In this document: piece after piece, positions 11,849-61,874 of the stretch
Layout: each line of letters starts with the position of its first letter
Numbering within the stretch: the stretch's first letter is position 1
DNA from: an uncultured virus (IMG/VR IMGVR_UViG_3300044612_003086)
Taxonomy: Duplodnaviria; Heunggongvirae; Uroviricota; Caudoviricetes
Virus record (IMG/VR): IMGVR_UViG_3300044612_003086
Coordinates: 1 to 64,000 of that record
DNA: 64,000 bases
Direction: 5' to 3' (one strand)
Notes under the pieces: generated by a model
Database searches by the model: none
What the model was told of the DNA's origin: nothing
The model's input: only the letters and a program-made list of their open reading frames with translations
Position numbers and translations under genes: made by a program

Positions 11849-11943
11849 TGTTCTACCCCCTTCGGGTCTAGGTATTTATTACGATTTCATCGTAATAGTG
11901 GGTGGGCAGACTTATCTAGTAAGTCCACCCACCCACTGAACGA

Positions 11944-12757: not shown

Positions 12758-12785
12758 ACTTTCGGTGGTTTAGTGGGAAAGGGGG

Positions 12786-37853: not shown

Positions 37854-40800
37854 TTATGAAGATTTTTTCTTAGTGTTTTTTATGGGCAATCGTGGCTGTC
37901 CTTCATCGCCTGACTCAAAAGCAAGTAGGGCCTTTCTGAACCGTTCAATTGTTTCCCTAGTAATTGTTTGGCCGCCATCGCCGCCGGTATCAATAAAGGC
38001 AGGACTCAGGTCATCTGCCCCAGACTCGAGCAACTCCCACAGAACGTTCAGGTTGGTTACGGCTTTTTGGTTTTCCTGCCCACCCAAATCCCTGGCTCGC
38101 GGAAGGAATTGCGCTGTTGGGTAAATATCGGTTACATCAAGATAAAGAGTTCCGTCATCCACCCATCCGCCGATAGCGACTCTTTCTGCTCCATCCGATG
38201 GGTTGTTGAATACTTCAGGTCCGTGAAAGTCCAGCCATGCAACGAATGTGTCAATAAGTTCTTCTGTTGGCTCTCCATCCGGAGTGAAGTCTGCAGAAGC
38301 TGGAAAAATCATTCCTTTTTTATTTCTTGCTACTGCTATACCATTTTTTATGTCGTCCATTGTGTCTAGCTCGACAGTAAAACCGCCTTGGAATCCTTTT
38401 TGCAGAGTCTTTCTTGCCAGTAGGCGTTTCTCTGGGGTTTCAGCATATTTGACCTCAACCTGTGATGCTATTTGCCGTATCTGCTCTGGAGAGTACTTAA
38501 CTCTTTTTTTCTTCACAGTAGCTCCAGATGAAAGGCGTGGCGCACTGCTTGAATTTCGTTCCTGAGATTTTTCTGCCAGATTTCCCCACGGTTCTGTATT
38601 GCCGTCAACAAACAGTATTGAATAAACATCTTCACGCAGTTTTTTATTTAGCGCATATGTCTTCAACTTATCATTTGGGTGAAGTATCGCAACTACTGCC
38701 TCAGCAAATGCTTCAGCTTTATTTGTATTACCGTAAGAAGAGAGCGTCATCGGACTATCTGTAACCGAATTTATGTCAACCCCGTCAGAGAATCTGGCCA
38801 TCATGTCAGGATTCATAATTACATCGTTATACTCGGACGCAACCTGCAGCGCTTGCGCGTAACGCTTATCCTGAGGGTCACCAGAACCAAAATAATGGCG
38901 ATTTTTTGGCTTGCCAGCTAGTTCGACGTCTTTTAGTGCTCGGAAATGCAACCAATGTCCCCACTCATGGGTTATGACTCCAGCTATTGATTTGTCAATA
39001 GTGTTATCACGGCTCGTTACGAGTCTCGTCGGGTCCATGGTCACGTTTTCGCGTGCTGTGTCTAGCGAATTTGATTCCCTGTCGATAATCAGTCTTCGGT
39101 TAAAGGATACGGAATTAAGGAATGGAGTTGTCCTGGCGCGAACATATGGGTCTTTTGAACCGATTCCGCGAACACTCTTTATTTGTTCAAGTTTTGACGA
39201 AACCTGAGGCAAGCTTTCATACGCCCTCGAAGCATCAGCTGTTTGCATGTAGAAAACGGGAGCACCGTGTGTCTCAAATGCCCACTTTAGTTTTGGATTT
39301 GATTCGACAGCTTGCTCAACAGCGTTACGCACAGCTTCAACTGCTTCGGGGGAGAAATCTATATCATCCCATGGATTGTTTTTAAAATACTCGTCATGGA
39401 CGGCGTTGAATTTTTTTACGTATTCTTCAGAGTCTCGTCCTCCTGGCGCAAAATCATCAATAAGCATTTCAAAGTATTGCTCTTTTGATGTTGGGACGAG
39501 CAATTCAGACATTTGTCTTGGAGTCATGCCCTTTAGCCAGTTCGACTTGCTTCTGCGAACATTTCCGCCAAGTTCACTTTGGTCTCCGTATTTATATTTT
39601 TTCAATTGATGCGCTTTTATATCTGGCTGATTCATTTTGAGTATTGGACGCTCGCCTCCAGACGAAAGACGGTTAGAGGTTCGTCTATTTTTCCTGCCAC
39701 CACGCGATAGGAGGCGATTAACCACAGTCCTTGGAGCTGACTGCTGGCTCTTGCGCTTGATGTCACGCTTCATTAAAATAGTGACGCCTTCTCCGGCTCT
39801 AAATAGCTCATCGGCTTCTTCAAAATCAACAAGCTGTTCTGCTGTTGCATTTGTTTTGAATTTTCCGTTTTTTGATTTTTCGTAGAGCGATGTTATTCTC
39901 TTCTTTTCTTCGTCCGTAAACCAGTTTCGTGATGAATCATTTACCGCATTATCTATTACTTCTATAAATTTTTGCTGCTCGCCCTGCGACGCCCATGTAA
40001 AGCCATTTCTAGCCCAGTGTGTTGCGCCCATATAGTCGCCTTGTTTCCCAGACTGAGCGGAAGCCAATATTGTTTCTGCATCAATCTCTCTGTAAACAGC
40101 CTCGTTTCTGGCGTTGAAAATGCTCGCTATTCCATTGCCTCGAGCTGGGGCACCGACGGATAGTGAATCATGGACAATTATCTTATTTCTTCCATTGATT
40201 ACAATTGTTCTGATTGAATCAGCAATTACCAGTTGGCCTTCGTTTTGCCCTTTTTCGAAGTCCTCCATATCTCCAATTCCGTCCCAACGTTCCCGCCGTG
40301 GAATTCCTGCTTGAGTAAGTCGTTTTACCGCGTCCTTGTCTTTTGTTTCAATGGTGAATTTCAAGCTCACGCTTGTGGATGGCCGCTTTTTCACGCCTTC
40401 CATAATTCCATCGACCCCAAGGGCTTCACTTGCTTCTTCGAATTCTTCTTCGTCCATTTTCTGTACGACGACGTCTGTCGGTGAAACAACAACATCAAAT
40501 GTTCTACCAAGATTTATTTTTTCTCCGTTTGTTGCCGTGACTATAACGTCGTTTCTTGTCGTTATTTCACCAGAAAACATATCTTTCGCTGCTGACTTTA
40601 TTGATTCTTTGAGGGCTTTTCTTTCTTCGCTATCCGCGAGAACCTCTTCTTCGAATACATCGTATTCAATACCCTGAATTTTCTGAAATGAGGAATATCT
40701 TGGGTCATCTTTGGTAATCCACTCATCTTCTTTTTGGAGTTCGTCATTCAGCATCAGCGCAGAGAAACTCTCTACTCCTGCTCGCTGTTCGTTTGATAGG

Positions 40801-43800
40801 TAATTTTCCTCACTTACGACTGAATCGTAAATTTTACCTGAAGACAAACCGCGTATTTCATTAATTCTTTCCAACAAGCGATTATCTTCATTGATGTCAT
40901 ATTCTTCTGCAAGAATTTTACGAATTTTTCGTGCGTAGTTGTATCTCCTTCTAAATAAAGCACGAAGTTGTTTATCTTTTTCTTCATCACTTCTTCTAAG
41001 TGAGTTCGTACTAATATCCCGTATTGAGTCATATGCCAAAATAGGATTGTGAACTTCTATTTCATAAGAATAAGTTGTACGCGTATTGCCATCTCTGTCT
41101 TTGACTTCTTTTTGTATATCCCTGAGTACGTATCCAAATTCTTTAATTGAATCATCATCGCTAATCGCTTGAAATAAAATCCCACTGTCAGGTTTGAGTG
41201 AGGTCTCAATCCGCCCGCCATCATATTCAACTGCAGCTTTTGGAAGTTTGAATGTTTTTGGCTGAATTGCTCCGTCTTGCCCAGATGACAAGGAGTTGCG
41301 TTTATCTGGGTCATAACCCCACTCGAGCCATGAGTCACCGTTGGTGTAGATGTCTTTTGCTTTGACGCGTTTTTTGATTATTTCATAGTCCCCACGAAGA
41401 ACTCCCTCACCGTGCTCAACTGCATACTGTCGTACGGGGGTCACCCAGTCACCTGGATTTATTGATACAAGCTCAGATTCTTCCTGATTGCGTAGAGCAT
41501 CTAGCTCAGATGCAAGTTTGTCGTAATAGTCGCTGTGATGGAGGTTTGTTGATACACCACGAGGTACCCGACCATATTGGAGAATGTATTTCTGCTGTTT
41601 TTCGAGTCTTAGTATTTGCTCATCCCTCGATATCGGAACAGCCCTATACACGGTCACATCGGCATTCGGTTTATTTCTGAAACGACGAACCACATCTACT
41701 GCGGCTGCGTCAAAACTGTCATTACCCGTTCCGTAGTAGCGGATACTTGAGGAGGAATAAACATCATCTGGGTAAACACCAGTCAAATTGTGAAGTGGTG
41801 CTCCAGAATCTGCATCTGGGGCCATATGCATTCCTCTGTAGTCGCCATCATCTCCAGATGAAAGACGGCGATACTCAGCGACATCTTGTTCGAATTTATC
41901 TACCGCTGCTGCAAATTTTGCATTATTTGAATTGAACTTTGCATCCCTTTTGTCTTTGTCCAAAACGTCAGTTGACCAACCATTAATGATGGCTCCATCG
42001 ATAATCGCCGACATGACAAGACCGGTTGCTTCAGCATCTGCATCTGCCGTATGGTGTTTTTCACCTAAATCAACATTGAGGTATTTGGTTATGGCGGCAA
42101 GTCCATTGGACGGCTTCTTGTTCCCGTCTGCATCAAGAACGAATGGGCCGTCGTCTGTTTCTGGCGTCCAACGAGGAAGGGCCATATCTGAAATTTCTTT
42201 AGTGTCTAGGTAGCCCTTGGGTCTCCATGTAATGCCTGATTGAGATAGTGCCAGTTCGAGGACGTCTTTGTCAAATGATGCGTTTTGTACGCCGAATATT
42301 GCATCATCTCCAGCAAACTCGGCAAGTCGTTCATGTGCCTTTTTGATAGATGTTTGGGTTTTTAACCACTCATCTGTCAGCGGATTGCCATCTATGTCCT
42401 TGAGGTTCGCGCGAGACCATTCACCAAGAGATTCTTCTGGGTCCATGAAAATATTGATGCTGTCAATTATTTTTCCGTCTTTCATCTTCACAGCACCAAA
42501 CTGTGTTGGTTGGCCATTGGAAGAAGGTTTGCGGAATTCATCAAATACCAGACCAGTCGTCTCGTAATCAAAGAAAATTATTTCTCGATTTTTGTACTTG
42601 TCCTTAAATTCCTGCCATGTTTTAGCATCGCCAAATTCTTGCTCTGCTCCGCCAATAAAAGCACCGTATGTTGGTTTTCTAGGATAAGAAGGCCTGTCTG
42701 AGCCGCTAGACAAACGCTTTGAGTAGTCAATCGGTTCGTTTATGTCAGCTAGAAGCTCATCAATGTCTACATATCCCCTTTCATCATGCATTTTGACAAT
42801 TCTTGGAGTCATCGCAAACAATATGTCGTCATAATCAGTCTGGCTGAAACCCTGAGGCTTCGAGAGTCCGGCAATCGGCTTGTTTTTTCCTAGTACTTGC
42901 CACTCCCCACCAGGACCAAGGATGTCGGTAATGTCATGACCCCATTTTCCTACACCAAACCATGATGTGCCTCTACGATGTCGTGCTGTTGCTAAATCCT
43001 GCAACCATAATGTGCGTATTTCCTTTATCATCGAGGAAAAGGCTTCAGTTGGATATCTGTCGAGATATCCAGAATATTTTGTAGCAGCTTGATACAGACC
43101 AGAGTGAGTAGACATAAAGTTCTTGTCATCACCAAGTGCAGCCAATACCGACTGCATCTCTGATGCTGCTTTTTCTTCGACTCCTAGATTTAACTCGACC
43201 TCACTGATAATCCCGTCAAGATTAAATGCATTGCCTTTTCTGGCATTTATGTCAGATATTCTCAGGCTGTCACCAACTTCCCAGCCTTTTGTAAATTTAT
43301 CGTCAGAAGCAAATGCCACGTACGGACTACCAATGATGTTCGCAATAGCTCTAACTTCGTCTTGATTCTCAATTACTGAAGACTCATCATTTGCGCGAAG
43401 CTTTTGCAATAATGAGCGATATGCTTTGACTTTGACTGACGTTGAAGCAAAATCACGGCGTAAATTTCGTGACTGTGTCTCATTTAGCTCGCGTGTATTA
43501 CCTAGTATCTGTCCAGAGCCAATTCCTCCACCTTTTGTGCGTTCAGGTATGAATATTCCATCATCTAGTTCTGCTACTCCATGATGAATAAAGTACGCGT
43601 TAGTTGGTGTTGGTGAAATAAAAAGGTTATCTTGTTCTTGCTGACTCAGAGACCTTATCGAATCAGCTTCGCTTTTAAGAACTGCAATTTTTTCTTTTGG
43701 TATTTCTTCAACATCTAGAACATTTTGTTCATCTCGTATTTTTTTGCGATTTTCTTCAAATTCTTGAATTCGTAGGCTTTCTTCAGCAAGATAAAGTTTT

Positions 43801-44471
43801 TCTTTTGCTTCCGTAACCCTACTTGACAGGGCTTTTTTAATTTCGCTTTCCCGTTGCGCAGGGTCGTTAATGTTTCTACTATCGAGGTCTTGCTCGATGA
43901 GTGCTACGTGTTCTTCACGTGTTTGATTTGCTGGATTTATTCCAGGTTTATCAATATCGATGGTGTCGACTGGCTCGTTGCTTCTTGAATTACCGCTAAG
44001 AACGACACCGTTATCTTTTCCTGTCCAATTCCCGGACCGCTCTAATTCGGCAATTGCAGCCCTTAGCCCTTCAACTCTTTTACGAGCCACAGCAACTCTT
44101 TCTTCTACTGGGCTGGTTTGTTCTGTTGTGTTTGCCTGCCCAGAAGAGAGTCGCACGGCTTGTCGAACCGCCTGGGTTTCATCGTTTGTGCCTATAAACC
44201 TTGGACGCGTTGTGCCCTCATCGACCCACCCGTCTGCATCCGGGTCGAAATTACTGCCGGTTGGTTTTCTGCTTCCTGGCACCCCTCCTGTTGGAACATC
44301 AATGTCTCCACGACGACGCCTACGTCCGCCTCCAACATTTGGCCTATCAATAAGACGACTGCCCACATACGAGGCAAGGCGACGACCAATGGCCTTGGTT
44401 TCCTGCTCTAGCTCTCTACCTTTTCGGGAAAGCTCAAACGGAATCTCAAATTCCTCATCTGCGTTAGACAT
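37854..44471 (-). CDS. 2205-aa polyvalent multi-domain protein (DEDDh exonuclease, ART-like, GNAT-like, zincin peptidase-like domains)
   Basis: FFDYETTG...QNASFD...HTADADA (DEDDh); VTVYRAVP...INPGDWVT (ART-like); ARGNGIAS...HWARNGF (GNAT-like); HEWGH...YGNTNKAEAFAE (zincin). Confidence 0.85.
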   Translation of the reverse strand: MSNADEEFEIPFELSRKGRELEQETKAIGRRLASYVGSRLIDRPNVGGGRRRRRGDIDVPTGGVPGSRKPTGSNFDPDADGWVDEGTTRPRFIGTNDETQAVRQAVRLSSGQANTTEQTSPVEERVAVARKRVEGLRAAIAELERSGNWTGKDNGVVLSGNSRSNEPVDTIDIDKPGINPANQTREEHVALIEQDLDSRNINDPAQRESEIKKALSSRVTEAKEKLYLAEESLRIQEFEENRKKIRDEQNVLDVEEIPKEKIAVLKSEADSIRSLSQQEQDNLFISPTPTNAYFIHHGVAELDDGIFIPERTKGGGIGSGQILGNTRELNETQSRNLRRDFASTSVKVKAYRSLLQKLRANDESSVIENQDEVRAIANIIGSPYVAFASDDKFTKGWEVGDSLRISDINARKGNAFNLDGIISEVELNLGVEEKAASEMQSVLAALGDDKNFMSTHSGLYQAATKYSGYLDRYPTEAFSSMIKEIRTLWLQDLATARHRRGTSWFGVGKWGHDITDILGPGGEWQVLGKNKPIAGLSKPQGFSQTDYDDILFAMTPRIVKMHDERGYVDIDELLADINEPIDYSKRLSSGSDRPSYPRKPTYGAFIGGAEQEFGDAKTWQEFKDKYKNREIIFFDYETTGLVFDEFRKPSSNGQPTQFGAVKMKDGKIIDSINIFMDPEESLGEWSRANLKDIDGNPLTDEWLKTQTSIKKAHERLAEFAGDDAIFGVQNASFDKDVLELALSQSGITWRPKGYLDTKEISDMALPRWTPETDDGPFVLDADGNKKPSNGLAAITKYLNVDLGEKHHTADADAEATGLVMSAIIDGAIINGWSTDVLDKDKRDAKFNSNNAKFAAAVDKFEQDVAEYRRLSSGDDGDYRGMHMAPDADSGAPLHNLTGVYPDDVYSSSSIRYYGTGNDSFDAAAVDVVRRFRNKPNADVTVYRAVPISRDEQILRLEKQQKYILQYGRVPRGVSTNLHHSDYYDKLASELDALRNQEESELVSINPGDWVTPVRQYAVEHGEGVLRGDYEIIKKRVKAKDIYTNGDSWLEWGYDPDKRNSLSSGQDGAIQPKTFKLPKAAVEYDGGRIETSLKPDSGILFQAISDDDSIKEFGYVLRDIQKEVKDRDGNTRTTYSYEIEVHNPILAYDSIRDISTNSLRRSDEEKDKQLRALFRRRYNYARKIRKILAEEYDINEDNRLLERINEIRGLSSGKIYDSVVSEENYLSNEQRAGVESFSALMLNDELQKEDEWITKDDPRYSSFQKIQGIEYDVFEEEVLADSEERKALKESIKSAAKDMFSGEITTRNDVIVTATNGEKINLGRTFDVVVSPTDVVVQKMDEEEFEEASEALGVDGIMEGVKKRPSTSVSLKFTIETKDKDAVKRLTQAGIPRRERWDGIGDMEDFEKGQNEGQLVIADSIRTIVINGRNKIIVHDSLSVGAPARGNGIASIFNARNEAVYREIDAETILASAQSGKQGDYMGATHWARNGFTWASQGEQQKFIEVIDNAVNDSSRNWFTDEEKKRITSLYEKSKNGKFKTNATAEQLVDFEEADELFRAGEGVTILMKRDIKRKSQQSAPRTVVNRLLSRGGRKNRRTSNRLSSGGERPILKMNQPDIKAHQLKKYKYGDQSELGGNVRRSKSNWLKGMTPRQMSELLVPTSKEQYFEMLIDDFAPGGRDSEEYVKKFNAVHDEYFKNNPWDDIDFSPEAVEAVRNAVEQAVESNPKLKWAFETHGAPVFYMQTADASRAYESLPQVSSKLEQIKSVRGIGSKDPYVRARTTPFLNSVSFNRRLIIDRESNSLDTARENVTMDPTRLVTSRDNTIDKSIAGVITHEWGHWLHFRALKDVELAGKPKNRHYFGSGDPQDKRYAQALQVASEYNDVIMNPDMMARFSDGVDINSVTDSPMTLSSYGNTNKAEAFAEAVVAILHPNDKLKTYALNKKLREDVYSILFVDGNTEPWGNLAEKSQERNSSSAPRLSSGATVKKKRVKYSPEQIRQIASQVEVKYAETPEKRLLARKTLQKGFQGGFTVELDTMDDIKNGIAVARNKKGMIFPASADFTPDGEPTEELIDTFVAWLDFHGPEVFNNPSDGAERVAIGGWVDDGTLYLDVTDIYPTAQFLPRARDLGGQENQKAVTNLNVLWELLESGADDLSPAFIDTGGDGGQTITRETIERFRKALLAFESGDEGQPRLPIKNTKKKSS

Positions 44472-47308: not shown

Positions 47309-47677
47309 TCACTTGAGATTCATTCCTGGAATAAGAATTATCGGTTCACGCGGAACCAATTGTATTTTCATTCTACGTCGCAAAGTCTTCCGTTGTCGCT
47401 CGGTTGTACCAGCCCAGATACCGTACTTTTCGTGGTAAATGCTGTATGCAAAACACTGTTCTATTTTTGCGCATTCATTGCAAATTTCAATAGCGAGCTT
47501 GGTGTTGTCTCGAGACTCGATATAGCTTTCCTTGAAATCATCGCTCTCTCGGTCAGCGTGTGGAAAGAAAATGTTTGGGCTGTAATTTTTGCATGCGCCA
47601 TCAGTCGGCGGTCTATCCACTCGTACTGGAATTTCACTTTGCGTATATGGATAGCTTGGCACTGTTCCCCCAATCAT
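47309..47677 (-). CDS. whiB: WhiB-family transcriptional regulator
   Basis: AC...FFP...ICNEC...QC...YGIWAGTTERQR. Confidence 0.9.
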   Translation of the reverse strand: MIGGTVPSYPYTQSEIPVRVDRPPTDGACKNYSPNIFFPHADRESDDFKESYIESRDNTKLAIEICNECAKIEQCFAYSIYHEKYGIWAGTTERQRKTLRRRMKIQLVPREPIILIPGMNLK

Positions 47678-48521: not shown

Positions 48522-49160
48522 GTGGAGCAATACGTTGACGATTTCGGCAAGATGGCCTTAGCCCTGACGTCGGCCCAGTTGGCTAAAGATGTTGCCATTT
48601 CCGAGCACGGAATCGGAGAGGACGTGGCTACACACTTTCTTGGATGGTCTCCAAAGTACTTAATGCTTATTGCCCAGATGAAGCAGTCTGTCACCAATCT
48701 CCCACACGAAATAAAATTTGAAAAGTGTAAAGAATTATGCGAGTTAATGCGAAAATACTGGGGTATTGCGTCGCTGACGATGGTGGCTGAGGGGTACTGC
48801 TCCTACGACGCAGCACAGACCAAAGGGTCCAGTCTTGCAGCCGCATTCGTGGACAGGGACAACTCTGTGTCTGAGTGCATAACGATAAGCCATGCCTCTA
48901 TTGACGATTCAGACTCGGTAACGCCGGTTTCGATGGTCGCCGCACCATATTCCGTTTCAATAGGTAAAAAAGTTGATTGGGCAGAAATGCTCTTTTACCC
49001 AGAAAAAGCAGACAAATACCTAAAACAGGCGAAATATCCGCAGATGATAAGAAATTCGTTAATGGGGAACGTGGTCGATGAAGTGAGCCAGGGGCAAATC
49101 ATGCGGGTTAGGGATGAAATAGACGAACTTGGCTTTTTAATTCAAGATTTTACTGTTTAA
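48522..49160 (+). CDS. hypothetical protein
   Basis: 212 aa ORF. Confidence 0.7.
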   Translation: MEQYVDDFGKMALALTSAQLAKDVAISEHGIGEDVATHFLGWSPKYLMLIAQMKQSVTNLPHEIKFEKCKELCELMRKYWGIASLTMVAEGYCSYDAAQTKGSSLAAAFVDRDNSVSECITISHASIDDSDSVTPVSMVAAPYSVSIGKKVDWAEMLFYPEKADKYLKQAKYPQMIRNSLMGNVVDEVSQGQIMRVRDEIDELGFLIQDFTV

Positions 49161-49182
49161 ATATTAGGTATAATTAAATATT

Positions 49183-49512
49183 ATGGGAGCTTTTTACGAT
49201 AGTCCTGCATTTGGAGACGGCTCCAAGGGGGAAGTAGAAATAATTGCAGGCGTAAAGATTCACCGAGCGAGCCGTCAACCATGCCCAGTTTGTGGTCATC
49301 CGACCGGTGATTGTAGTGGAGAATCTGGGCCACCAAAAACTATTTTTGGTTACAACACGAATTCATCACTAGATGACAATTTGACTTTTTATGTTGAAGA
49401 AGATTATGTTGAGGAACACGAAATAGCACCAGGCGTTACAACGAAAACAATAATTTATCGAGCTGGACAACACATTCCATTAAATACAGCAAAAGAGCTC
49501 GGACTAATTTAA
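49183..49512 (+). CDS. hypothetical protein
   Basis: CPVCGHPTGDC. Confidence 0.65.
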   Translation: MGAFYDSPAFGDGSKGEVEIIAGVKIHRASRQPCPVCGHPTGDCSGESGPPKTIFGYNTNSSLDDNLTFYVEEDYVEEHEIAPGVTTKTIIYRAGQHIPLNTAKELGLI

Positions 49513-49610
49513 TTTTTTCCACGACGCTGGACCATTTCAGTATTTTTTTTTCGGCTACACTCTTTTCTCTTATACGCTCACCGCACCACACAGTAAGGAA
49601 TTAAATTAAA

Positions 49611-51539
49611 ATGTCTATTCTTGACCCATCTTTCATCGCAAGTTACGCAGATAAAAAAACACCATGGGGTTTCGGTGGTTTGGGCGAGGTTGTATACCTG
49701 CGCACATACAGCCGCCCAGTCGATGGAACTGGTCGCAATGAGACGTGGACCGAAACAATTACCCGCGCAATTAATGGCGCAATTGAAATTGGCGTTCCAT
49801 TTACGCCAGAGGAAGCAGAAAAGCTTTTTGACCACATGTTCAACCTGCGTTGCTCGCTTTCTGGGCGTGCTCTTTGGCAACTTGGCACACCGCTTGTCAA
49901 GAAGTTCAATGCAACTTCTTTGAATAATTGTTACTTCACAAATATTGAATCGATTGAAGATTTTGAATTGCTGTTTGAATACCTGATGCTGGGTGGCGGC
50001 GTTGGATTCTCGGTAGAGCGCTCGAAGATTCACGAGCTACCAAAAGTTAAGCCAGGCGTCGTCATCACTCACGAGCGGTCAAATGACGCAGACATTATCG
50101 TTCCTGACTCTCGTCAAGGATGGAAGCGACTCCTTCATGCAGTTCTTAAGTCATACTTTGATACTGGCAAGTCTTTTTCATACTCGACAATTTTAATTCG
50201 TGAATATGGCGCGCCATTGAAGACGTTCGGCGGTACCGCATCTGGTCCAGGCGCATTAATTGACGGAGTTGCCGACATATGCAAGGTAATGCAGAATCGC
50301 GAGGGCAAGAAGCTTCGTTCAATTGACGTGCTCGACATTTGCAACATCATTGGTCGCATCGTTGTTTCTGGTTCATCACGTCGTTCAGCACAGATTGCAA
50401 TTGGTGACCCAGACGACGTTCTGTTTATTCGAGCAAAGAACTGGTCAACTGGCAGCGTTCCAGCGTGGCGTGCTAACTCCAACAACTCCATCTATGCAGA
50501 TGCGTACGAAGAAATCATGACAGAACTCTGGAAGGGTTACGACGGCTCAGGCGAGCCATACGGTCTTGTTAATCGCAAGCTTGCAAGGAATTATGGCCGA
50601 CTAGGCGAAAGAATGGTCGACAATAGCATTGAGGGCTTCAATCCGTGTGCGGAAATTGCCCTCGCAGATGGCGAGTCATGCAATCTAGCCACAATATTTT
50701 TGCCAAATGTCGAATCACTTGAACAGCTAAAAGAAATATCAATGTTGCTATACAAGGTGCAGAAACAGATAACCAGGCTTGACTACCCATACGCAAAGAC
50801 AACCGAGATTGTTCGCAAGAACGCAAGACTCGGCCAGAGCGTCACTGGAATCTTGCAGGTGGAGCAGGAAAAGATTGAGTGGCTTGATAAGGCGTATATA
50901 AATCTCCGTGAATTTGATAAAAAGTACTCGGCAGAAAATAATTGGCCAGAATCGGTTCGCCTTACAACAGTTCAGCCATCTGGTACCTTGGCGCTGCTCC
51001 CAGGCAACACGCCTGGTATACATCCAGGATTTGCGCAGTACTACATCCGACGTGTGCGCTTTGGTTCATCAGACCCATTGGTCGATGGTTGCCGTAAGCG
51101 CGGTTATAAAGTTCAGTGGGATATCGGAATTGACGGTCGCGAAGACCACACTAAATATGTGGTTGATTTTCCGTGCGAATCGCCAGAGGGCGCAGTTCTT
51201 GCCGCAAGCATGACAGCAGTTGAGCAGCTTGAATGGGTGAAGAAGATGCAAACCGTATGGGCAGACAACGCTGTGTCCGTAACCGTCTACTATCGCAAGG
51301 AAGAGCTCGATTCAATCAAAGAATGGTTATCCAAGAACTACGACAAGGGCGTCAAATCGGTGTCGTTTCTTTTGCACAGCGACCACAACTTCCCGCTTCC
51401 GCCATACGAAGAAATCACCAAAGAGGAATACCAAAAACTGATATCAAAAATAGATTTTTCAATTCCTTTGGTGCAAAATTCCTTTGACGGACTGCTTGCG
51501 CTTGATGATTGTGCTACTGGTGCTTGTCCTGTAAAGTAA
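49611..51539 (+). CDS. nrdJ: class II (B12-dependent) ribonucleotide reductase
   Basis: VYLRTYSR, SGRALW, LNNC, RRSAQI, NPCAEI, TTVQPSGT, C-terminal CATGACPVK; no beta subunit adjacent. Confidence 0.93.
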   Translation: MSILDPSFIASYADKKTPWGFGGLGEVVYLRTYSRPVDGTGRNETWTETITRAINGAIEIGVPFTPEEAEKLFDHMFNLRCSLSGRALWQLGTPLVKKFNATSLNNCYFTNIESIEDFELLFEYLMLGGGVGFSVERSKIHELPKVKPGVVITHERSNDADIIVPDSRQGWKRLLHAVLKSYFDTGKSFSYSTILIREYGAPLKTFGGTASGPGALIDGVADICKVMQNREGKKLRSIDVLDICNIIGRIVVSGSSRRSAQIAIGDPDDVLFIRAKNWSTGSVPAWRANSNNSIYADAYEEIMTELWKGYDGSGEPYGLVNRKLARNYGRLGERMVDNSIEGFNPCAEIALADGESCNLATIFLPNVESLEQLKEISMLLYKVQKQITRLDYPYAKTTEIVRKNARLGQSVTGILQVEQEKIEWLDKAYINLREFDKKYSAENNWPESVRLTTVQPSGTLALLPGNTPGIHPGFAQYYIRRVRFGSSDPLVDGCRKRGYKVQWDIGIDGREDHTKYVVDFPCESPEGAVLAASMTAVEQLEWVKKMQTVWADNAVSVTVYYRKEELDSIKEWLSKNYDKGVKSVSFLLHSDHNFPLPPYEEITKEEYQKLISKIDFSIPLVQNSFDGLLALDDCATGACPVK

Positions 51540-51551
51540 TAGGCCACGCAG

Positions 51552-51628
51552 GCGTTGGTAGCTCAATCGGATAGAGCAACAGACTTCTAATCTGTAGGTT
51601 GTAGGTTCGAGTCCTACCCGACGCGCCA
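51552..51628 (+). tRNA. tRNA-Arg(UCU)
   Basis: Anticodon loop CTTCTAA; encoded CCA. Confidence 0.95.
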
Positions 51629-51643
51629 TCAAACACATCAATC

Positions 51644-52342
51644 ATGGAGGCTGCAATGGAAGTGAAAGAAAGAAAAATTGATGAGTTTGGGTTTGTGCGT
51701 CTAGACGCACATATGGCCGACGATATGTCGGTTGTCAATGCAGCACGTGTATCTTTTGCACGACACCAAGAGGAGCTTGATGAAGCAGCAAAAGGATTGA
51801 TAAATTTCTTAATGCGCGAAAGACATGGCACTCCTTTTGAGCACAATGCATTTAGATTCCATATTAAGTGTCCAATATTTGTTGCTAGGGAATGGTTTAG
51901 GCACAGAATAGGTTCATTTAATGAATTTTCAGCTCGATACAGTATGGTCAACGATGAGTTTTTCGTTCCTGCAGAGCACGATGTGAGAACTCAGGTTGGA
52001 AAACCGGGCGCATACCACTTTGACCCCGTTGAAAAAGATGTCGCCGATAGAACTATTGAAAGAATTAAAAATATAAACGAAATGGCGTACGGCACCTACA
52101 AGGAATTGATTAATGACGGCGTTGCAAAAGAGCTTGCACGAACAGTTTTGCCAATGGGAATGTACACACAGTTTTATTGGACGGTAAATGCTCGCTCGTT
52201 AATGAATTTTTTATCTCTTCGTCTAGACAAGTCTGCACAGGTGGACATTCGCCGATATGCAACATGTGTTGAAATTGTTTTGGCTCAAACTATGCCTGTC
52301 ACGTATAAGGCATGGGTTGAAAATGGAATGGTATGTCCATAG
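51644..52342 (+). CDS. thyX: flavin-dependent thymidylate synthase
   Basis: HGTPFEH, REWFRHRIGSFNEFSARY; start may be 51656. Confidence 0.95.
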   Translation: MEAAMEVKERKIDEFGFVRLDAHMADDMSVVNAARVSFARHQEELDEAAKGLINFLMRERHGTPFEHNAFRFHIKCPIFVAREWFRHRIGSFNEFSARYSMVNDEFFVPAEHDVRTQVGKPGAYHFDPVEKDVADRTIERIKNINEMAYGTYKELINDGVAKELARTVLPMGMYTQFYWTVNARSLMNFLSLRLDKSAQVDIRRYATCVEIVLAQTMPVTYKAWVENGMVCP

Positions 52343-52374
52343 TTGATTGAAGGTGTAAAAATTAACCATATTTT

Positions 52375-52450
52375 TGGCGAGTAGCTCAGTTGGCAGAGCA
52401 AGGGACTGTTAATCCCTGGGTCGTAGGTTCGAGCCCTACCTCGCCAGCCA
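52375..52450 (+). tRNA. tRNA-Asn(GUU)
   Basis: Anticodon loop CTGTTAA; encoded CCA. Confidence 0.95.
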
Positions 52451-52513
52451 TTATGTGGATTATTTAATTGTTTCCGATAGGGTACATCTAAACCACAAAT
52501 TTAAAGGAAAATC

Positions 52514-53290
52514 ATGAGAAACATGAAGAAGATAGTTGTAGTTGCCGCCCTTTTGTTTGCAACGCTCGGCTCTAGTGAGGCAACCGCTCAAGATTGCGGC
52601 GAATACACAGAAGCTCCATCATCATTGGCCCCCTCAATGATTACGATTATTGATACAGAAGTTGGAACCGATGCATATCAACGATTGGTTGCTTACAGTA
52701 ATGGTGGGCACAAGGCTCTGGGAATGGCGATTGCTGGTTTCTATAACTACCTTGATAAGTGCCAGTACGTAGGCATTGGCATCGGAGACGGAAGTGGTGG
52801 TAATGGCTTTCGCCCGAATTACACACTAGCTATTTGGTACGAAGGTATTGATTTGTCCGTGGCTCGTTCTGCTATTTACTCCCTTATTGGAGCCAGCGCG
52901 AATCCAGTTGTGAGTAATGGTGATTGCAATATCTCATGTGACGGAACGACTGGTCGTCAGTTTGATGGCACCATTGCTACTTCCACCACTACGACGAACA
53001 TTCCCGAGACGACCACCACTACGACGACAATTATTCCGCAAGTTATTGTGCCCGTTGCTCCTCCAAGGCCAGCAGAAGAATTAGATGTTGCTCCAGTTGA
53101 AGTACCAACAGTCCCAAGTGAAGCACCAGTAATCGTTGAAACAACGACAACCACCTCCCTTGCTTCCATGCAAGTAATTGAGTCTGTTTCATTGAGTGTT
53201 GCTACTGCAAACAAGGAAGTTGCCAGCAATAAGAAGACTTTGCCCCCTAAGAAGAAGGCAAAGAAGGTGGTTGTTCAGCGCCGAAAATAA
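52514..53290 (+). CDS. secreted protein with Thr/Pro-rich linker and basic tail
   Basis: Signal peptide, poly-Thr tracts. Confidence 0.75.
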   Translation: MRNMKKIVVVAALLFATLGSSEATAQDCGEYTEAPSSLAPSMITIIDTEVGTDAYQRLVAYSNGGHKALGMAIAGFYNYLDKCQYVGIGIGDGSGGNGFRPNYTLAIWYEGIDLSVARSAIYSLIGASANPVVSNGDCNISCDGTTGRQFDGTIATSTTTTNIPETTTTTTTIIPQVIVPVAPPRPAEELDVAPVEVPTVPSEAPVIVETTTTTSLASMQVIESVSLSVATANKEVASNKKTLPPKKKAKKVVVQRRK

Positions 53291-53300
53291 CATAGGCGTC

Positions 53301-53390
53301 GGAGCGGTGGCAGAGAGGCTTATTGCACCTGTCTTGAAAACAGGAGTCCGTTTGCGCGGACCGGGGGTTCAAATCCCTCCCGCTCCTCCA
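53301..53390 (+). tRNA. tRNA-Ser(UGA)
   Basis: Anticodon loop CTTGAAA, long variable arm, CCA. Confidence 0.95.
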
Positions 53391-53396
53391 TATCCA

Positions 53397-53469
53397 GTCT
53401 GGGTAGCCCAATGGCAGAGGCACGGCGCTTAGGACGCCGCCAGTGAGAGTTCGAGTCTCTCTCCAGACA
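53397..53469 (+). tRNA. tRNA-Leu(UAG), short variable loop
   Basis: CGGCG-CTTAGGA-CGCCG arm; 5-nt variable region CCAGT. Confidence 0.88.
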
Positions 53470-53486
53470 CTATATTTTTAAGGGCT

Positions 53487-53558
53487 GCCCTTGTAGCTCA
53501 GTGGTAGAGCACCTCACTTGTAATGAGGTGGCCGTGGGTTCGACTCCCACCGAGGGCT
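53487..53558 (+). tRNA. tRNA-Thr(UGU)
   Basis: Anticodon loop CTTGTAA. Confidence 0.95.
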
Positions 53559-53581
53559 CTACTTTTTGCTAGGTTCTATTT

Positions 53582-54364
53582 ATGTCCGTAAAAATCATCA
53601 AAAATGTCGATATCGGCAATATTCCGCCTACCCCGGCGATTCCGATTATTGATGATGCTCGGACCCCGGAAGCCACATCCAACCTTATTGAAATCGCTGG
53701 ATTCCACGGATATCCAGTAAGTTACCGACAAGAACAGGGTGGGCGACTGATTCAGAATATTGTCCCTGTGCATAAAAACGAAAACCAACAAATATCTACG
53801 TCGTCAAAAGTTGAATTATATCTTCATACCGAGACGGCTTTTCACCCGTATAAGCCAACACATGTAATTTTGATGTGTTTACGCGGCGACGAAACAGCAC
53901 TGACAACATACTCCTCCCTTGACGACATAGTCTCCGAGCTTTCTGAAGAGCAGATAAATGTTCTCCGAACTCCAAACTTCACAACTTCATTGGATGACAG
54001 CTTCATGATGGATGGGGAACCGGATTTTACTCTCGGAATAACTCCTCTTTCTCGCGACAAAGCCGGCCATGATGTATTCACATTTGATTGGGCGTTAATG
54101 AGAGGTAAGACCACAGAAGCGCAATCGACTCTTTCCGCTGTTCGTGATGCAATATCAAAGACCACAAAAGAAGTGGCGCTCAAGTCTGGTGAAGTTATGG
54201 TTATAGACAACAGAGTTGCTGTACATGGCAGAAAGCCGTTTCAACCAAAATATGATGGGAGCGATAGGTGGGTGAAGCGAATCCTAACCATAGATAGACT
54301 TCCGCCAAGAAAATACATGGACGAACATGTAATTGATTTCGATTTTGAAGAGGAGGCGATGTGA
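53582..54364 (+). CDS. TauD/clavaminate-synthase-like Fe(II)/2-oxoglutarate dioxygenase
   Basis: LHTE metal motif, IDNRVAVHGR, DRWVKR. Confidence 0.85.
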   Translation: MSVKIIKNVDIGNIPPTPAIPIIDDARTPEATSNLIEIAGFHGYPVSYRQEQGGRLIQNIVPVHKNENQQISTSSKVELYLHTETAFHPYKPTHVILMCLRGDETALTTYSSLDDIVSELSEEQINVLRTPNFTTSLDDSFMMDGEPDFTLGITPLSRDKAGHDVFTFDWALMRGKTTEAQSTLSAVRDAISKTTKEVALKSGEVMVIDNRVAVHGRKPFQPKYDGSDRWVKRILTIDRLPPRKYMDEHVIDFDFEEEAM

Positions 54365-54422
54365 GCCTTAAAGAAATAGGTCTCTCCGAAGATTTCGATT
54401 TTTTGCGCACACGTTTTTCAGC

Positions 54423-54725
54423 ATGGACCAGAAGACTACGGGTTTATTAGTGCATCCACAATATACCACTAGCATGTATCCAATAACGATAAGGCAATCT
54501 CGTTATGGTGGGACATATGAGGGCGGCGAGTGGTATGCGTATCACGGAGACATAGAGCTCGCACAGGGGTATTACGACTACATTGACGGCGATGACTGCG
54601 ACGCTCTGGATTTTTGGGATTCGGACGACTCAAAATTTTTTGGTATTGGCGACACGCCGAACCAGGCACTCGAGGATATGTTGGACAGAAATCCAGTTAT
54701 TCGTACATCTCCCGATTGGGAATAG
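54423..54725 (+). CDS. hypothetical protein
   Basis: SRYGGTYEGGEW...GIGDTPNQAL; true start may be upstream. Confidence 0.6.
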   Translation: MDQKTTGLLVHPQYTTSMYPITIRQSRYGGTYEGGEWYAYHGDIELAQGYYDYIDGDDCDALDFWDSDDSKFFGIGDTPNQALEDMLDRNPVIRTSPDWE

Positions 54726-58092: not shown

Positions 58093-59508
58093 CTACTTGC
58101 TGTTCTTTGGATTTAGGCGATTCATTATCGCATCTTGGCCCGGAAACTTGGGACCCATAACGCGTCCTGTTTCTGGCTTCTTTTCTACTCGCGGACCTGG
58201 TGCGATTGTTGGTGGCTGTGGCCTATCAGCTCCTGGTCTTTTTGATGAAGGAGTTCCAGGATTTGGTTTTTGTCCTGGTGGGTACTTCTTTCCAGGACTC
58301 GGAATACGGTCTGCTGGCTTGCTTGGTTGAGGCCTACTTGGGCTTGGGTATCTGTCGGCTGGCTTGGTGTCTTTTGGCTCCGGTTTTTGCCCAGGAGGAT
58401 ACTTTTTCCCTGGACTTGGATATCTGTCGGCAGGCTTCTGGTCCCTTGGTTTGGATGGTGACGGCTTTTGCCCTGGTGGGTATTTCTTTGGCGGGTCTGG
58501 ATACCTATCTGCAGGCTTCTGGTCACGTGGTTTTGAAGGAGATGGCTTCTGTCCCGGAGGTGATGATGGTCCCTTTGGAAGACCGTCAGCAGATGGCTTA
58601 CCATCTGCCCCTCTTAGAACCTTGTCGAAAGCTGCTCTAGCTCTTGCACGAGCATCTCTTTCTTCCTTGCTTCTATCCTCAACACGTCGATTCATTTTTA
58701 TTCCCTGAAGCTTTAGCTGCTGACGAACAAATTTTCTTCTCTGCGCTTCATAGTTCGCATCGCTTGAGCGTTGATATGGTTTTCTTTGCTCTTGTGGAGT
58801 GCCATCGAAAATCATTCCATCGCTGTCGTGGTCTACGGCTTCCGCTGGATTTGTTCCGGTAGGAGCAGCGCCGCCAGCGCGTTGGCCAATTGACATTCCA
58901 AGAGCGGCTTTGTACTCATAATCTTCAAGTTCATCTGACTTCTTCTTTGAGTTTTGGTAACGCTCAAGAAGTCTTTTCCCTTTTGCAGCAAGCGCTGCTG
59001 CATCTTCCATATTTTTGGGAACTGGTTCCCCCCATGCTGCAGCAGAAAGAGCAAGTCTTGTTGCTCTTCCTTTTTCGTCTTTCATTGGTCCACGTGGGTT
59101 GGTGAAAAATCTAGTAAGGAATGAACCCTTGCGACGCATTTTTTCCGGTGTATCAGCTGGGCCTCTTACTCCTGGCTTTAGATTTGCGCCTTCTGTTCTC
59201 TTGAAGAACGCTCTACCAGCAGCTGTCAAACCACCCTTTGGGTCTTTGAGTGGTTTTTTCCCGCCCTTTGTTTTTATGTATTCAGGAATTGCCGAGATTT
59301 GTTCCTCGGATGGGAATTCGAATTGACCGACACGATTAGAACCGTAATACTCATCGAATATCGGCATGAAATCTTCTGATTTAAGTTCGATTAGCGTTTC
59401 ATCAATTAGCTGCTCGAGCTCATCTTGTTCTTGGATATTGTTCGCTATTTGCTCTAATTCGGCAAAAAGCTCTTCATCGCTTTTGATTTGTGACATCGCA
59501 TCTTCCAT
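58093..59508 (-). CDS. hypothetical protein with DUF6321-like domain and Pro/Lys-rich repeats
   Basis: DPKGGLTAAGR...NLKPGV...RRKGSF; repeated KPADRYP..KKYPPGQKP. Confidence 0.75.
   Translation of the reverse strand: MEDAMSQIKSDEELFAELEQIANNIQEQDELEQLIDETLIELKSEDFMPIFDEYYGSNRVGQFEFPSEEQISAIPEYIKTKGGKKPLKDPKGGLTAAGRAFFKRTEGANLKPGVRGPADTPEKMRRKGSFLTRFFTNPRGPMKDEKGRATRLALSAAAWGEPVPKNMEDAAALAAKGKRLLERYQNSKKKSDELEDYEYKAALGMSIGQRAGGAAPTGTNPAEAVDHDSDGMIFDGTPQEQRKPYQRSSDANYEAQRRKFVRQQLKLQGIKMNRRVEDRSKEERDARARARAAFDKVLRGADGKPSADGLPKGPSSPPGQKPSPSKPRDQKPADRYPDPPKKYPPGQKPSPSKPRDQKPADRYPSPGKKYPPGQKPEPKDTKPADRYPSPSRPQPSKPADRIPSPGKKYPPGQKPNPGTPSSKRPGADRPQPPTIAPGPRVEKKPETGRVMGPKFPGQDAIMNRLNPKNSK
58265..58560 (-). 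repeat. coding tandem repeats (KPADR-x-P-x-P-x-KKYPPGQKP)
   Basis: Four KPADR units, with PPGQKP repeated four times, and synonymous codon variation. Confidence 0.8.
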
Positions 59509-59625: not shown

Positions 59626-60975
59626 TCAGCTTGGCTCGTTGTCGAAGTCAACTTTGACGAATGCTTCTGGACGCTTGACAGCAAGGGCGAGTCTCTGCTC
59701 GGCCAAGATGACGATTGCGTTGCGCACGAAGAAGTCTGAGTGCTGTTCCGAAATTCGGATTGAAGCCTCTTCTCTGTCGTACAGCTGAGCACCGGTACCG
59801 AATGCACCGACCAGGGCTGTTCCCTCAGCGATTGCCGGGGTGTCAACGACTGGCATTCTCCAAACGCGTGGCTCGCCACCCATTGCCACTGACACAGCGA
59901 CCAAGTACTGGCCGTTTGTATCCTTGGTCAATTCGATGTCTTCCCAGTCGTTCGGGTGCAACACGATGCCGGATGGCTCGTAGTAAGCAAGGAACGAGAG
60001 GGTTGCGGCACGACGAATTGCATCAGCCTTTGTGTCTGGAACTGGTGTGTCTGCACCGTCTGACCATGCGTACTCCTGAATGTTTGGAGTCTGAAGAACA
60101 CCAAGAAGGTTTTCGCCAGTTCCATCGCCATTCAAAATCTGCGAGTCTTCTAGGAGACGCAGACCGTACATGAGTTCGTTGTCGATGATTGAACGTAGCT
60201 GTGGCTCATCGGCGAGGACGTTGCGGTGTGCAGCTTCCCAGTGTGCCAATGTGCGAACAGGAGCCTGCTCACCAACGAATGCGAACGATGACTGCGGCTT
60301 GATACCGAAGTTGCCACCAGAACGCTCAGCAACTGAAGATGCCGAGTTAACACCATGGCCAGCCTGAAGGGTTGTGAAACCGAGCTGACGGAAGTATTCG
60401 ATTACTGCTGCAGATGTTCTGCGAACTGGGAACAGGTCGCGAACACGCTTTGTACGCATTGGAGGAAGAACCATGGCATCGCGCTGAACGTTTCCGAAGC
60501 TGCCGAGGCGGCTGTCTGTAACTAGCGTTGTTGGCAATGCTGAGTAAACGTCCTTTACGTTGTAAGCGGTCAATGAAGCAGCGACTTGCCATGGTGCAAC
60601 CATGTTTGCGCCGTTACGGCCACCATTGAGTGTCTTGAACTCAGGTGACTCGATAAACATTTGACCGATTGACTTGATTTCGCGTGAGCTCAATTGACTG
60701 AGGTCTGCAGCTGCTGCAGCATAGCTTGAAGCTACTGCTTCTCCCTGTGGCTGTGATGACCATGAGTCAACATCGCCCATTGTCTGAAGGTCAGCGAGCA
60801 GTGACTTAATTGACTTAATGTCCTGCATGTTCTTGTCGAATGCTGACTTCTGCTCAGAAGAAACAACTACTGTGCCTTCCTCGATTTTGAATGAGTCCGC
60901 AATGGCTTTATTGTCTGCCATTTTGGTGCGAAGAGCTGACTGCAGCTCTTCAATTCTTGCTTTGTCTTGTGACAT
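59626..60975 (-). CDS. major capsid protein, HK97 fold with N-terminal delta domain
   Basis: VRDLFP, VRTLAHW, LEDSQILNGDGTGENLLGVL, VLHPNDW, FVRNAIVILAEQRLALAVKRPEAF. Confidence 0.95.
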   Translation of the reverse strand: MSQDKARIEELQSALRTKMADNKAIADSFKIEEGTVVVSSEQKSAFDKNMQDIKSIKSLLADLQTMGDVDSWSSQPQGEAVASSYAAAAADLSQLSSREIKSIGQMFIESPEFKTLNGGRNGANMVAPWQVAASLTAYNVKDVYSALPTTLVTDSRLGSFGNVQRDAMVLPPMRTKRVRDLFPVRRTSAAVIEYFRQLGFTTLQAGHGVNSASSVAERSGGNFGIKPQSSFAFVGEQAPVRTLAHWEAAHRNVLADEPQLRSIIDNELMYGLRLLEDSQILNGDGTGENLLGVLQTPNIQEYAWSDGADTPVPDTKADAIRRAATLSFLAYYEPSGIVLHPNDWEDIELTKDTNGQYLVAVSVAMGGEPRVWRMPVVDTPAIAEGTALVGAFGTGAQLYDREEASIRISEQHSDFFVRNAIVILAEQRLALAVKRPEAFVKVDFDNEPS

Positions 60976-61133: not shown

Positions 61134-61874
61134 TTATTTTTGACTGAGTTCCTCAGAAATTGCGTGCTTTTTCTTTAGGTTGCTCTTGCCACCGGAACGA
61201 AAAACAGTACGAACGGCGTTCATTATTTCTCGGCTTCTGGTTCTCTCCGCATTTCTTCTTCCCAGCGAAGTTGAGCCGGTTCTATTTGCGTAATCGGTCA
61301 TATTTGTGCAAGGCATCCAAACTGTTCTTCCGTTTTTGCTAACTCTCCTGCTTACGCCAATGCAACCGATTTGCCTAGCTCTTGACCGAGCTGAGTCTGG
61401 GTCCATGAACACATCTGTGTCATCTTCCCTTACGTATTGAGGGCCCTGAAGAGCTTTGCCGCTTACCGGGACACAGTTTGGGACCATGCTCCCATTTTTC
61501 CCAGGTTTCATTCCAACCTGTTTGTATCCAGGCCAACATGGACTGGATTCCGCTTTTCCAGCAAAATTCCCAGACACCAATCCACCGCCGTCGATTGTTT
61601 CTATTCCTCGAATCGGCATCTCGTTCAAGTTTTCCCAATTATCTATTCTTCGTTTTTTCTTTTTCTTTCCAGTGCTTCTTCCGGCAGCTTTTCTTTCTCC
61701 GGCAACAACGGTTCTCCATTTACTTGTTTCAGCAATATCTGATAGACGCTCAAGCTCACCCATTGATGCACATGGCATCCAGTTGCCATCTTTATCCTTG
61801 TGCGCCCCAAAGCAACCCATTTCACGCGCAATTGCAAGTGCGTCAAGCTTCTTGACCAAGTCTGGTTTTTTCAT
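61134..61874 (-). CDS. hypothetical protein with duplicated A-R-x-x-GC-x-G...WMPC module
   Basis: AREMGCFGAH...WMPC and ARQIGCIGVS...WMPC; central PCWPGYKQVGMK...PNCVP. Confidence 0.7.
   Translation of the reverse strand: MKKPDLVKKLDALAIAREMGCFGAHKDKDGNWMPCASMGELERLSDIAETSKWRTVVAGERKAAGRSTGKKKKKRRIDNWENLNEMPIRGIETIDGGGLVSGNFAGKAESSPCWPGYKQVGMKPGKNGSMVPNCVPVSGKALQGPQYVREDDTDVFMDPDSARSRARQIGCIGVSRRVSKNGRTVWMPCTNMTDYANRTGSTSLGRRNAERTRSREIMNAVRTVFRSGGKSNLKKKHAISEELSQK

Follow-up and report, generated by a model that had tools for sequence, protein, structure and literature searches.

What are the repeated four-residue words in a very large phage protein for, and what reads them? The question is raised by an open reading frame (ORF) in a 64,000-nucleotide stretch of DNA from an uncultured virus of the Caudoviricetes (IMG/VR record IMGVR_UViG_3300044612_003086); this stretch, here called the window, opens a phage record of 133,891 bp. 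The ORF occupies 37854..44471 on the minus strand, and its translation, a 2205-amino-acid (aa) cassette polyprotein that we call P0001, carries the word LSSG (hereafter the tag) seven times. An initial annotation of the window held that LSSG separates the domains of this protein and is a cleavage or delivery signal releasing eight effectors, cut by an internal zincin metallopeptidase or by a head protease. Comparison with related phages points to a broader answer, in which the tag belongs to a code that is used across the genome and differs between lineages.

A plus-strand reading of 37854-44471 was rejected for the many stops in its translation. On the minus strand the reading is continuous, and a P0001-like protein at 95-100% identity is found on 12 IMG/VR viral loci. 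The tags begin at aa 108 (44139..44150), 587 (42702..42713), 870 (41853..41864), 1061 (41280..41291), 1209 (40836..40847), 1602 (39657..39668) and 1980 (38523..38534), all on the minus strand. The preceding residue is S in one case (1060), G in another (1208) and R in the remaining five, and the initial annotation was exact in both positions and preceding residues. Seven copies compare with 0.065 expected from composition; among 5000 shuffled versions of P0001 the mean was 0.064 and the maximum 2. The codons for L, S, S and G vary among the seven copies, so conservation acts at the protein level, as had been argued. A six-frame scan of the window gave only three other LSSG matches, all in short frames (81-113 aa), of which two run antisense to a longer ORF, and no plausible other gene in the window has the word. 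Flanks were examined at 147 non-redundant sites from P0001, its homologues and two sister giants. From -8 to +8 around the tag, hydrophobic residues have a frequency of 0.15-0.17 versus a background of 0.29; the residue at -1 is most often S (51 sites) or R (35), followed by G (14), K (12) and A (11), and +4 is occupied by A, K or R.

To place the tag in a wider context, we searched a collection of 5.8 billion proteins and recovered 45 homologues of 1856-3781 aa. LSSG occurs 3 to 11 times in 31 of the 45, against 0.06-0.21 expected, and 14 have none. A tblastn comparison of whole P0001 with named phages gave single-cassette matches only, below 60% identity, and no full-length relative. The 45 homologues, P0001 and the two sister giants were then compared all-versus-all by BLAST, keeping high-scoring segment pairs (HSPs) of less than 80% identity and at least 100 aa whose query had at least three tags. 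Among the resulting 3776 HSPs, 55.5% start no more than 6 aa from a tag or the N-terminus, versus 4.8% for randomly chosen positions; in 993 the start coincides with the L of LSSG, and HSP ends peak 3-4 residues inside the following tag, figures to be read with the caveat that four shared residues draw HSP ends and that near-duplicates are counted.

To define cassette families, every protein was split at LSSG, and the resulting 293 pieces were grouped with a reciprocal coverage of 75%; at 50% coverage everything collapsed into one cluster, because lost tags fuse cassettes. Recurrent families, denoted by letters, occur in varying order: A-G-C-E-S-D-B-K in P0001, A-E-D-C-B-F-N-.-H-W in P0010, A-C-B-.-I-D-E-J-L-M in P0012 and A-B-.-Q-W-D-C-.. 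in P0028. P0003, which is 99% identical to P0001, is without exactly the 148-aa cassette S, and its junction reads ..DKRNS-LSSG-KIYDS... The exonuclease cassette C is found at positions from aa 102 to 2255 across homologues; its start (..PSYPRKPTYG..) lies a few residues past the tag, and the tag directly precedes C wherever LSSG is used. The domain shuffling at LSSG that the initial annotation had suggested looking for is therefore seen in HSP borders, in cassette orders and in the loss of S from P0003. Judged from these alignments, cassettes have evidently been shuffled, gained and lost precisely at the tag, and the comparison supports the view that LSSG tags delimit autonomous units.

The tag extends to other proteins of the same phage. 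A giant of 2954 aa (G2954; 74948-83812, minus strand, outside the window) is encoded downstream of the terminase and portal genes and adjoins the portal gene. It begins with a Peptidase_S78 domain (aa 31-174; 38 bits, cut-off 21; PHROG 'head maturation protease', E 1.1e-25), followed by a copy of the P0001 leader, ArdC-N, MPTase-PolyVal (115 bits) and a UvrD-type helicase, and it holds six LSSG, an FSSG and an MSSG. A head-protease gene of the kind invoked by the initial annotation thus exists just outside the window. A second giant (G2458; 65789-73165, outside the window) has two RLSSG, an RCPxGTPxANQFTD motif and an HEFSH. Giants of its type share an N-terminal RCP[AP]GTPxANQFTD and, in 16 of 16 matched by this pattern, a conserved HExxH about 330-350 aa downstream; they have no Pfam or PHROG family match. 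Further along, sheath, tube and chaperone genes precede a 1570-aa protein (101817-106529, outside the window) that we take, by position only, to be the tape measure.

We then surveyed the tag in 19 related IMG/VR records and the present genome (G000), 20 genomes in all, leaving out G003 (99% identical), G010 (a 63-kb fragment with no S78 match), G021 and G023. One motif class dominates in 19 of the 20. It is [LF]SSG in G000, G002, G011, G012, G013, G015, G016, G019, G020 and G022; GSKS[TS]T in G001; GLAS[ST] in G004; G[LM]RS[SR]T in G009; RGMASR in G017; and an M-type class, [IV][ST]G[AKR]M, in G005, G006, G007, G014 and G018. No class was found in G008, which has S78 and no detectable code and was set aside as a code bearer. 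Each of the other 19 genomes has 12-29 sites of its own class and 0-5 of any other, and proteins of 1000 aa or more, with 22-52% of the residues, contain 80-100% of the sites. G022 has 19 FSSG sites versus 7 LSSG, a preference which indicates that the first tag position tolerates Phe. A further candidate, GLHT in G014, was rejected: it comes from 14 tandem GLHT(A/S)PR repeats, a Ser/Gly/Thr/Ala-rich unit, in one 1501-aa protein (8605-13110) that is probably a fibre unrelated to the code.

The word changes in place. Where LSSG stands before the exonuclease cassette in P0001, other lineages have GSKSTT, SG[AK]MS, GMRS, LSGS or GLASS. In 13 of 19 genomes the local motif is present in the tape-measure homologue, as a rule within aa 21-46 and a second time within aa 568-853. 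Within aa 15-60 of this protein the genome's own class is found in 11 of 19 genomes, and a foreign class in 1 of 19; one-letter variants occupy the same place in several other genomes, among them the present one (FASG, ..MERRFASGRTIEN.., against LSSG or FSSG in relatives) and G016 (LASG). A signal that changes in step across unlinked proteins argues for one factor acting in trans, and a boundary code read in trans is well supported. We conclude that LSSG is not a signal of P0001 alone, as first supposed, and that it is the local form of a boundary code that is used throughout the genome and differs by lineage; this code marks P0001, the head-block giants (one of them S78-fused) and, in most relatives, the N-terminus of the tape measure. 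A full-text literature search, which did not cover subscription journals, returned no description of an LSSG-type phage boundary code, and no proteome for this phage group was found.

Leader A (aa 1-107; 44151..44471, minus strand) comes first in LSSG-bearing homologues, has no Pfam match and contains a DxDxDG-like motif, DPDADGWVDEGT. A leader hidden Markov model matches 32 of 32 LSSG-bearing polyvalent proteins, P0001 included, and 0 of 14 without LSSG. The copy in the S78-fusion giant G2954 (aa 537-637) is 63% identical (64/101), with FSSG next, and internal copies lie at aa 533-620 in the protease-linked giants of G002, G011 and G012. The GSKSTT genome G001 has a leader of its own, common to three giants, which keeps KAIG..L and the DxDxDG-hydrophobic-V..E.T..RP pattern. 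The count of eight separate effectors needs correction: the first segment is a conserved leader, found also in a protease-fusion protein, and not an effector. Directly downstream of the capsid gene, a 471-aa protein (58093-59508, minus strand) has a motif, DHDSDGMIFDGT, like the DxDxDG loop of the leader, and repeats of the type KPADRYPSPGKKYPPGQKP occur in its C-terminal part, which is long and proline-rich.

Behind the leader, an RNase_T exonuclease, a GNAT fold and a zincin fold share one 2205-aa chain. A Pfam search of the eight P0001 segments at E up to 5 gave RNase_T only, plus sub-threshold noise, and P0001 is without MPTase-PolyVal, ART-PolyVal and LPD domains at that threshold. Cassette G (aa 108-586; 42714..44150, minus strand, as are all the cassettes) belongs to a module family found in 15 proteins and has no credible Pfam match and no usable Atlas match. 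Cassette C (aa 587-869; 41865..42713) matches RNase_T at E 4.9e-10 with 40.6 bits (cut-off 24; 34.8 bits for the whole protein), which confirms the DEDDh 3'-5' exonuclease that the initial annotation had placed at aa 586-869. The next segment, cassette E (aa 870-1060; 41292..41864), had been called similar to ADP-ribosyltransferases (ART). This assignment found no support: there is no Pfam match and no ART family match, and the stretch of P0046 homologous to E (1060-1200) adjoins ART-PolyVal (1213-1364) and lies outside that domain. The ART likeness comes down to a weak Atlas lead (0.75-0.76), while phrog_2579, labelled ParB C-terminal domain, matches at E 3e-30. Cassette S (aa 1061-1208; 40848..41291) is the one exactly absent from P0003. 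The model of E is of low confidence, with a predicted local distance difference test (pLDDT) of 28-58, and the model of E and S is too poor to interpret.

Cassette D (aa 1209-1601; 39669..40847) has a C-terminal half, about aa 1290-1577, with a predicted GNAT fold. In a model of aa 860-1610 its pLDDT is 65-93, and VIA-align with model residues 426-720 gave GNAT acetyltransferases in all top 50 rows (Z 7.0-9.1, root-mean-square deviation (rmsd) about 3 A), the best being 2vzy_A (Z 9.1, rmsd 3.1, 130 aligned). The GNAT-like domain proposed earlier is thereby supported as a fold for this half. No Pfam GNAT match was found in aa 1209-1601 at E up to 5; the Pfam GNAT matches of the homologues fall in other cassettes (I, Q) and not in D. 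Cassette K (aa 1980-2205; 37857..38534), the C-terminal module, has no Pfam match; families K and H occur in 20-23 proteins.

Cassette B (aa 1602-1979; 38535..39668) is a predicted zincin metallopeptidase, with HEWGH at aa 1835-1839 and AEAFAE downstream. Its AlphaFold2 model is confident (mean pLDDT 88, predicted template modelling score 0.89), and H234, E235, H238, E319 and E323 of the module are at least 90% conserved among 20 aligned sequences. The nearest folds are all zincins, led by the catalytic domain of anthrax lethal factor (1yqy_A; Z 8.7, rmsd 5.2, 182 aligned), and the Pro-Pro endopeptidases PPEP-3 and PPEP-2 follow at Z 6.5 and 6.3, scores that the tool, like the 8.7, calls middling. 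Foldseek gave no match at E of 0.001 or less (best E 0.039), a PDB sequence search with the module gave nothing usable, and Pfam Peptidase_Mx, at E 0.014, stayed below its cut-off. M34 zincins, among them anthrax lethal factor and the Pro-Pro endopeptidases, cut defined sequences in extended linkers. Module B would resemble them in its modelled zincin fold and its HExxH with a downstream Glu, through a borderline match and without sequence-family membership. The HEWGH zincin of the initial annotation is thus supported by a confident model and by all-zincin structural neighbours.

The same models bear on where the tags lie. The folded core of module B is flanked by residues 1-6 (LSSGGE) and 366-378, both with pLDDT below 50, and in the model of aa 860-1610 pLDDT falls below 50 around aa 1209 and 1602. 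The tags checked in this way sit in low-confidence linkers outside folded cores, as had been expected of signals at domain edges.

We judge the odds to be about even that the tag directs proteolytic processing, with the phage's own HK97-type S78 head protease as its reader. That the tag is cut at all we infer, with S78 as the leading candidate for the cutter. S78 is present in 20 of 20 genomes. In 13 it is joined to tag-bearing cargo; in the other 7 it is a protein of its own (468-881 aa), which in three cases has the genome's own motif at aa 323-347. The major capsid protein (59626..60975, minus strand) is an HK97 gp5 homologue (PDB phmmer E 5e-53) with a delta-like, coiled-coil-like N-terminal domain, and an LSS tripeptide at its aa 95-97 (window 60685-60693) ends a variable linker just before a conserved KSIG block. 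At this delta/mature junction, before K[ST]IG, L[ST]S is found in 10 of 10 [LF]SSG genomes and at 62 of 80 capsid loci overall. Other classes have [MF]G (4 of 5 M-type genomes), LGS (the GLAS and G[LM]RS genomes), SAS (the GMAS genome) or ATS (G001). Within S78, columns near the presumably catalytic His (VVWGH) and Ser (EWSIGY), which we assign by likeness to HK97 gp4, split by code class: column 128 is K or Q in [LF]SSG genomes, F or V in M-type and I, S or T in others, and column 59 is D or E; columns 39 and 139 are class-specific too.

Several observations weigh against S78 as the reader. Genomes with unrelated codes share 71-84% identity in the S78 catalytic domain, so that only a few residues would have to set specificity, and the covariation of S78 with the code is clade-wise and confounded by linkage, because the S78 gene adjoins the giants. 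The capsid protein has LSS-R only, not LSSG. A scan with an eight-column position-specific scoring matrix picked the capsid junction for the LSSG class only, with scores of 4.1, 8.0, 4.9 and -2.9, and alignment with HK97 gp5 puts the equivalent capsid cut near aa 148 instead of aa 97. In G014 an M-type code is combined with an LTS capsid junction; this genome was considered as a capsid/protease recombinant, but its portal, 72-74% identical to those of M-type genomes, makes it simply a genome of the M-type clade. The portal and scaffold-like proteins of the present genome are without the tag, and tags in the tape measure are not expected for a protease confined to proheads. Finally, the substrate cuts described for the SPN3US protease in the available part of the source (PMC10052503) all remove N-terminal propeptides, with no dissection of a polyprotein.

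The alternative that survives best, which we nevertheless consider unlikely, has the tag cut by a phage zincin and not by S78. The enzyme could be module B, in cis or in trans, the HExxH domain of the RCPxGTP-type giants such as G2458, or MPTase-PolyVal. This would be the autoprocessing route of Iyer et al. 2017, who proposed MPTase processing of polyvalent proteins (PMC5512222, as far as its available text goes), and its setting might be the cytoplasm or the time after ejection, with everything leaving the virion as its target. Module B suits the part, with its confident zincin fold, conserved HExxH and E, and nearest likeness to the sequence-specific M34 endopeptidases, and B and the leader occur together in 32 of 32 LSSG polyvalents and 0 of 14 without LSSG. 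This split first suggested B as the LSSG protease and was weakened by two genomes: the complete genome G012 has 20 [LF]SSG sites and no module B, and G004 has remote B-like modules yet uses GLAS. Because G012 lacks B, the internal zincin named by the initial annotation is unlikely to be the general cutter; G2458 and G2954 of the present phage are likewise tagged without B. The HExxH of the RCPxGTP-pattern giants, present in 16 of 16 with a clade-dependent context, belongs to a diverged domain that remains a candidate. MPTase-PolyVal was ruled out as a universal cutter by its absence from the complete genome G014. That every giant cuts itself with its own zincin fitted G000 and G001 and was rejected on a wider set of giants: many tagged ones are without HExxH (for example those of 3462 aa in G005, 3927 aa in G007 and 2429 aa in G009), which excludes general self-processing in cis. 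Tape-measure tags would be easier to explain with a protease that is soluble or ejected than with one confined to proheads, and the zincins are far more diverged than S78, as changing specificity would predict; yet nothing ties any zincin to the capsid-junction pattern.

It is improbable, we think, that the tag is not cut at all and serves in an intact chain as a linker element for docking or threading during packaging or ejection, as a hinge, or as a site of Ser-directed modification. Ser, Thr and Gly abound in every lineage variant, as in phosphorylation or glycosylation sites, but the M-type codes ([ST]G[AKR]M) hold at most one Ser or Thr. N4 virion RNA polymerase and ArdC/TraC1 are transferred unprocessed according to the available part of Iyer et al. 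(PMC5512222). A hinge, however, needs no invariant four-residue word and no covariation across at least three unlinked proteins, and a hydrophobic-then-small pattern, a removable-looking leader before the tag and a protease fusion are marks of protease substrates.

Reading by a host protease or kinase after injection, with the code varying with the host, is very improbable: the code does differ between otherwise similar phages (capsid 73-82% identical), as host switches would predict, and the marked set (head cargo, polyvalent protein, tape measure) matches what enters the host, but code class goes with phage clade, as given by the portal and a 683-aa head protein, and in most genomes a likeness to the code is seen at the capsid junction, a site that never reaches the host.

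Processing by the S78 head protease has partial parallels in known systems. Processing by T4 gp21 involves capsid-targeting sequences. The head protease gp245 of SPN3US processes ejection proteins at a motif, as described in the available part of PMC10052503. Common to these systems and the proposed one, within what that text covers, are a phage head protease, a short motif in several virion proteins, removal of an N-terminal piece and ejected cargo; both of those proteases are of the T4 gp21 type and cut after Glu, whereas the protease here is of the HK97-type S78 family. Here, unlike in T4 or SPN3US, there are 7-11 sites per chain that would dissect a polyprotein, and the portal and scaffold-like proteins are without the motif while the tape measure often has it.

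The precursor of herpesvirus assemblin has release and maturation sites of a Leu/Val-x-Ala|Ser type consensus. As in assemblin, the protease here is fused to a travel partner, a site follows the catalytic domain (in 3 of 7 separate S78 proteins), and a hydrophobic-x-small|small pattern would be compatible with L-S-S|G; unlike here, assemblin has two sites and not dozens, and no enzyme cargo. RNA-virus polyproteins offer a likeness of working only: one product, a recurring protease site between units and a virus-encoded protease. The present case differs from them in being a dsDNA phage with accessory enzymes and no replication core in the chain, in the shuffling of its cassettes, and in sharing its code with other virion proteins.

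Polyvalent proteins are the closest precedent for the cargo itself. As in those described by Iyer et al. (PMC5512222, available text), one phage polypeptide joins a nuclease, an acetyltransferase fold and a zincin, and sister giant G2954 adds ArdC-N, MPTase-PolyVal and a UvrD helicase. The same source makes the same proposal of delivery with DNA and processing by a peptidase. No inter-domain signal is described in the text of it available to us, in which 'linker' occurs 0 times, in contrast to the lineage-switching code and the shuffling at it seen here; assemblin-like peptidases are C-terminal in the polyvalents covered there, whereas S78 is N-terminal here. What the present family adds, relative to that part of the source, is an explicit boundary signal, an N-terminal head-protease fusion and evidence of cassette exchange at the signal. 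A large polyvalent protein, gp47 of 2811 aa, occurs in phi24B virions according to the available part of a 2026 preprint.

We propose that P0001 is a virion-delivered cargo polyprotein of a large myovirus that probably infects actinobacteria. It would consist of an N-terminal leader and seven autonomous cassettes (an exonuclease, a GNAT-fold enzyme, a zincin and four unassigned), each beginning right after [R/S]-LSSG in a short flexible linker. The leader may target the chain to the assembling head and be removed at the first tag; that P0001 shares it with the S78-fusion giant G2954 is indirect evidence for packaging and injection with the DNA. S78 would cut at or beside each tag, and the Leu/Val-x-Ala|Ser sites of assemblin-type enzymes suggest L-S-S|G as a possible bond. 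From one gene product, processing would yield separate enzymes, to be ejected together with the DNA into the next host. Should the tags be cut, a single gene would provide as many as seven separate enzymes for the first minutes of infection, and the layout of cassettes and tags would explain how phages re-assort counter-defence tool kits.

More tentatively, we suggest an 'ejectosome code': a switchable signal of 4-6 residues, read by a phage protease, that would mark every protein leaving the virion (head-cargo giants, polyprotein and tape measure) and double as the joint at which cassettes are swapped. Such a code would have been rewritten at least five times among close relatives, 12-29 sites per genome at once, with a change of a few protease residues. 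If this is true, the injected protein arsenal of an uncultured phage becomes readable from sequence alone, the tag offering a listing of what the phage packs and injects, and the family is a natural example of protease and substrate sets co-evolving. Repeated wholesale code changes with a nearly unchanged protease make it a tractable system for studying how specificity and dozens of substrate sites change together.

The remaining genome is that of a tailed phage: window and genome together encode a terminase, portal, HK97-type capsid protein, tail sheath and tail tube. A WhiB-like regulator gene in the window (47309-47677, minus strand; PHROG E 5.7e-14) and the nearest cultured relatives of the capsid protein, in Brevibacterium phage Cantare (49%) and Gordonia phages (46-49%), suggest an actinobacterial host. 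The head region of Cantare has no similar layout. A plus-strand block at 48522-54725, with ribonucleotide reductase and thymidylate synthase, splits the minus-strand run between the head genes and the polyprotein. Upstream of the capsid gene, 61134-61874 (minus strand) encodes a 246-aa protein with two DUF3721 repeats (Pfam E 3.8e-13). DUF3721 occurs also in a 2853-aa giant of the GSKSTT phage G001 (28984-37545), which has pentapeptide repeats (Pfam E 2.7e-21) and three HExGH motifs. Collagen-like GATGPTG repeats, with no code sites, are found outside the head block in proteins of 994-1245 aa in G004, G011, G012 and G007; these are presumably tail fibres. With 435 capsid-gene matches in IMG/VR, the phage family appears to be common in freshwater metagenomes.

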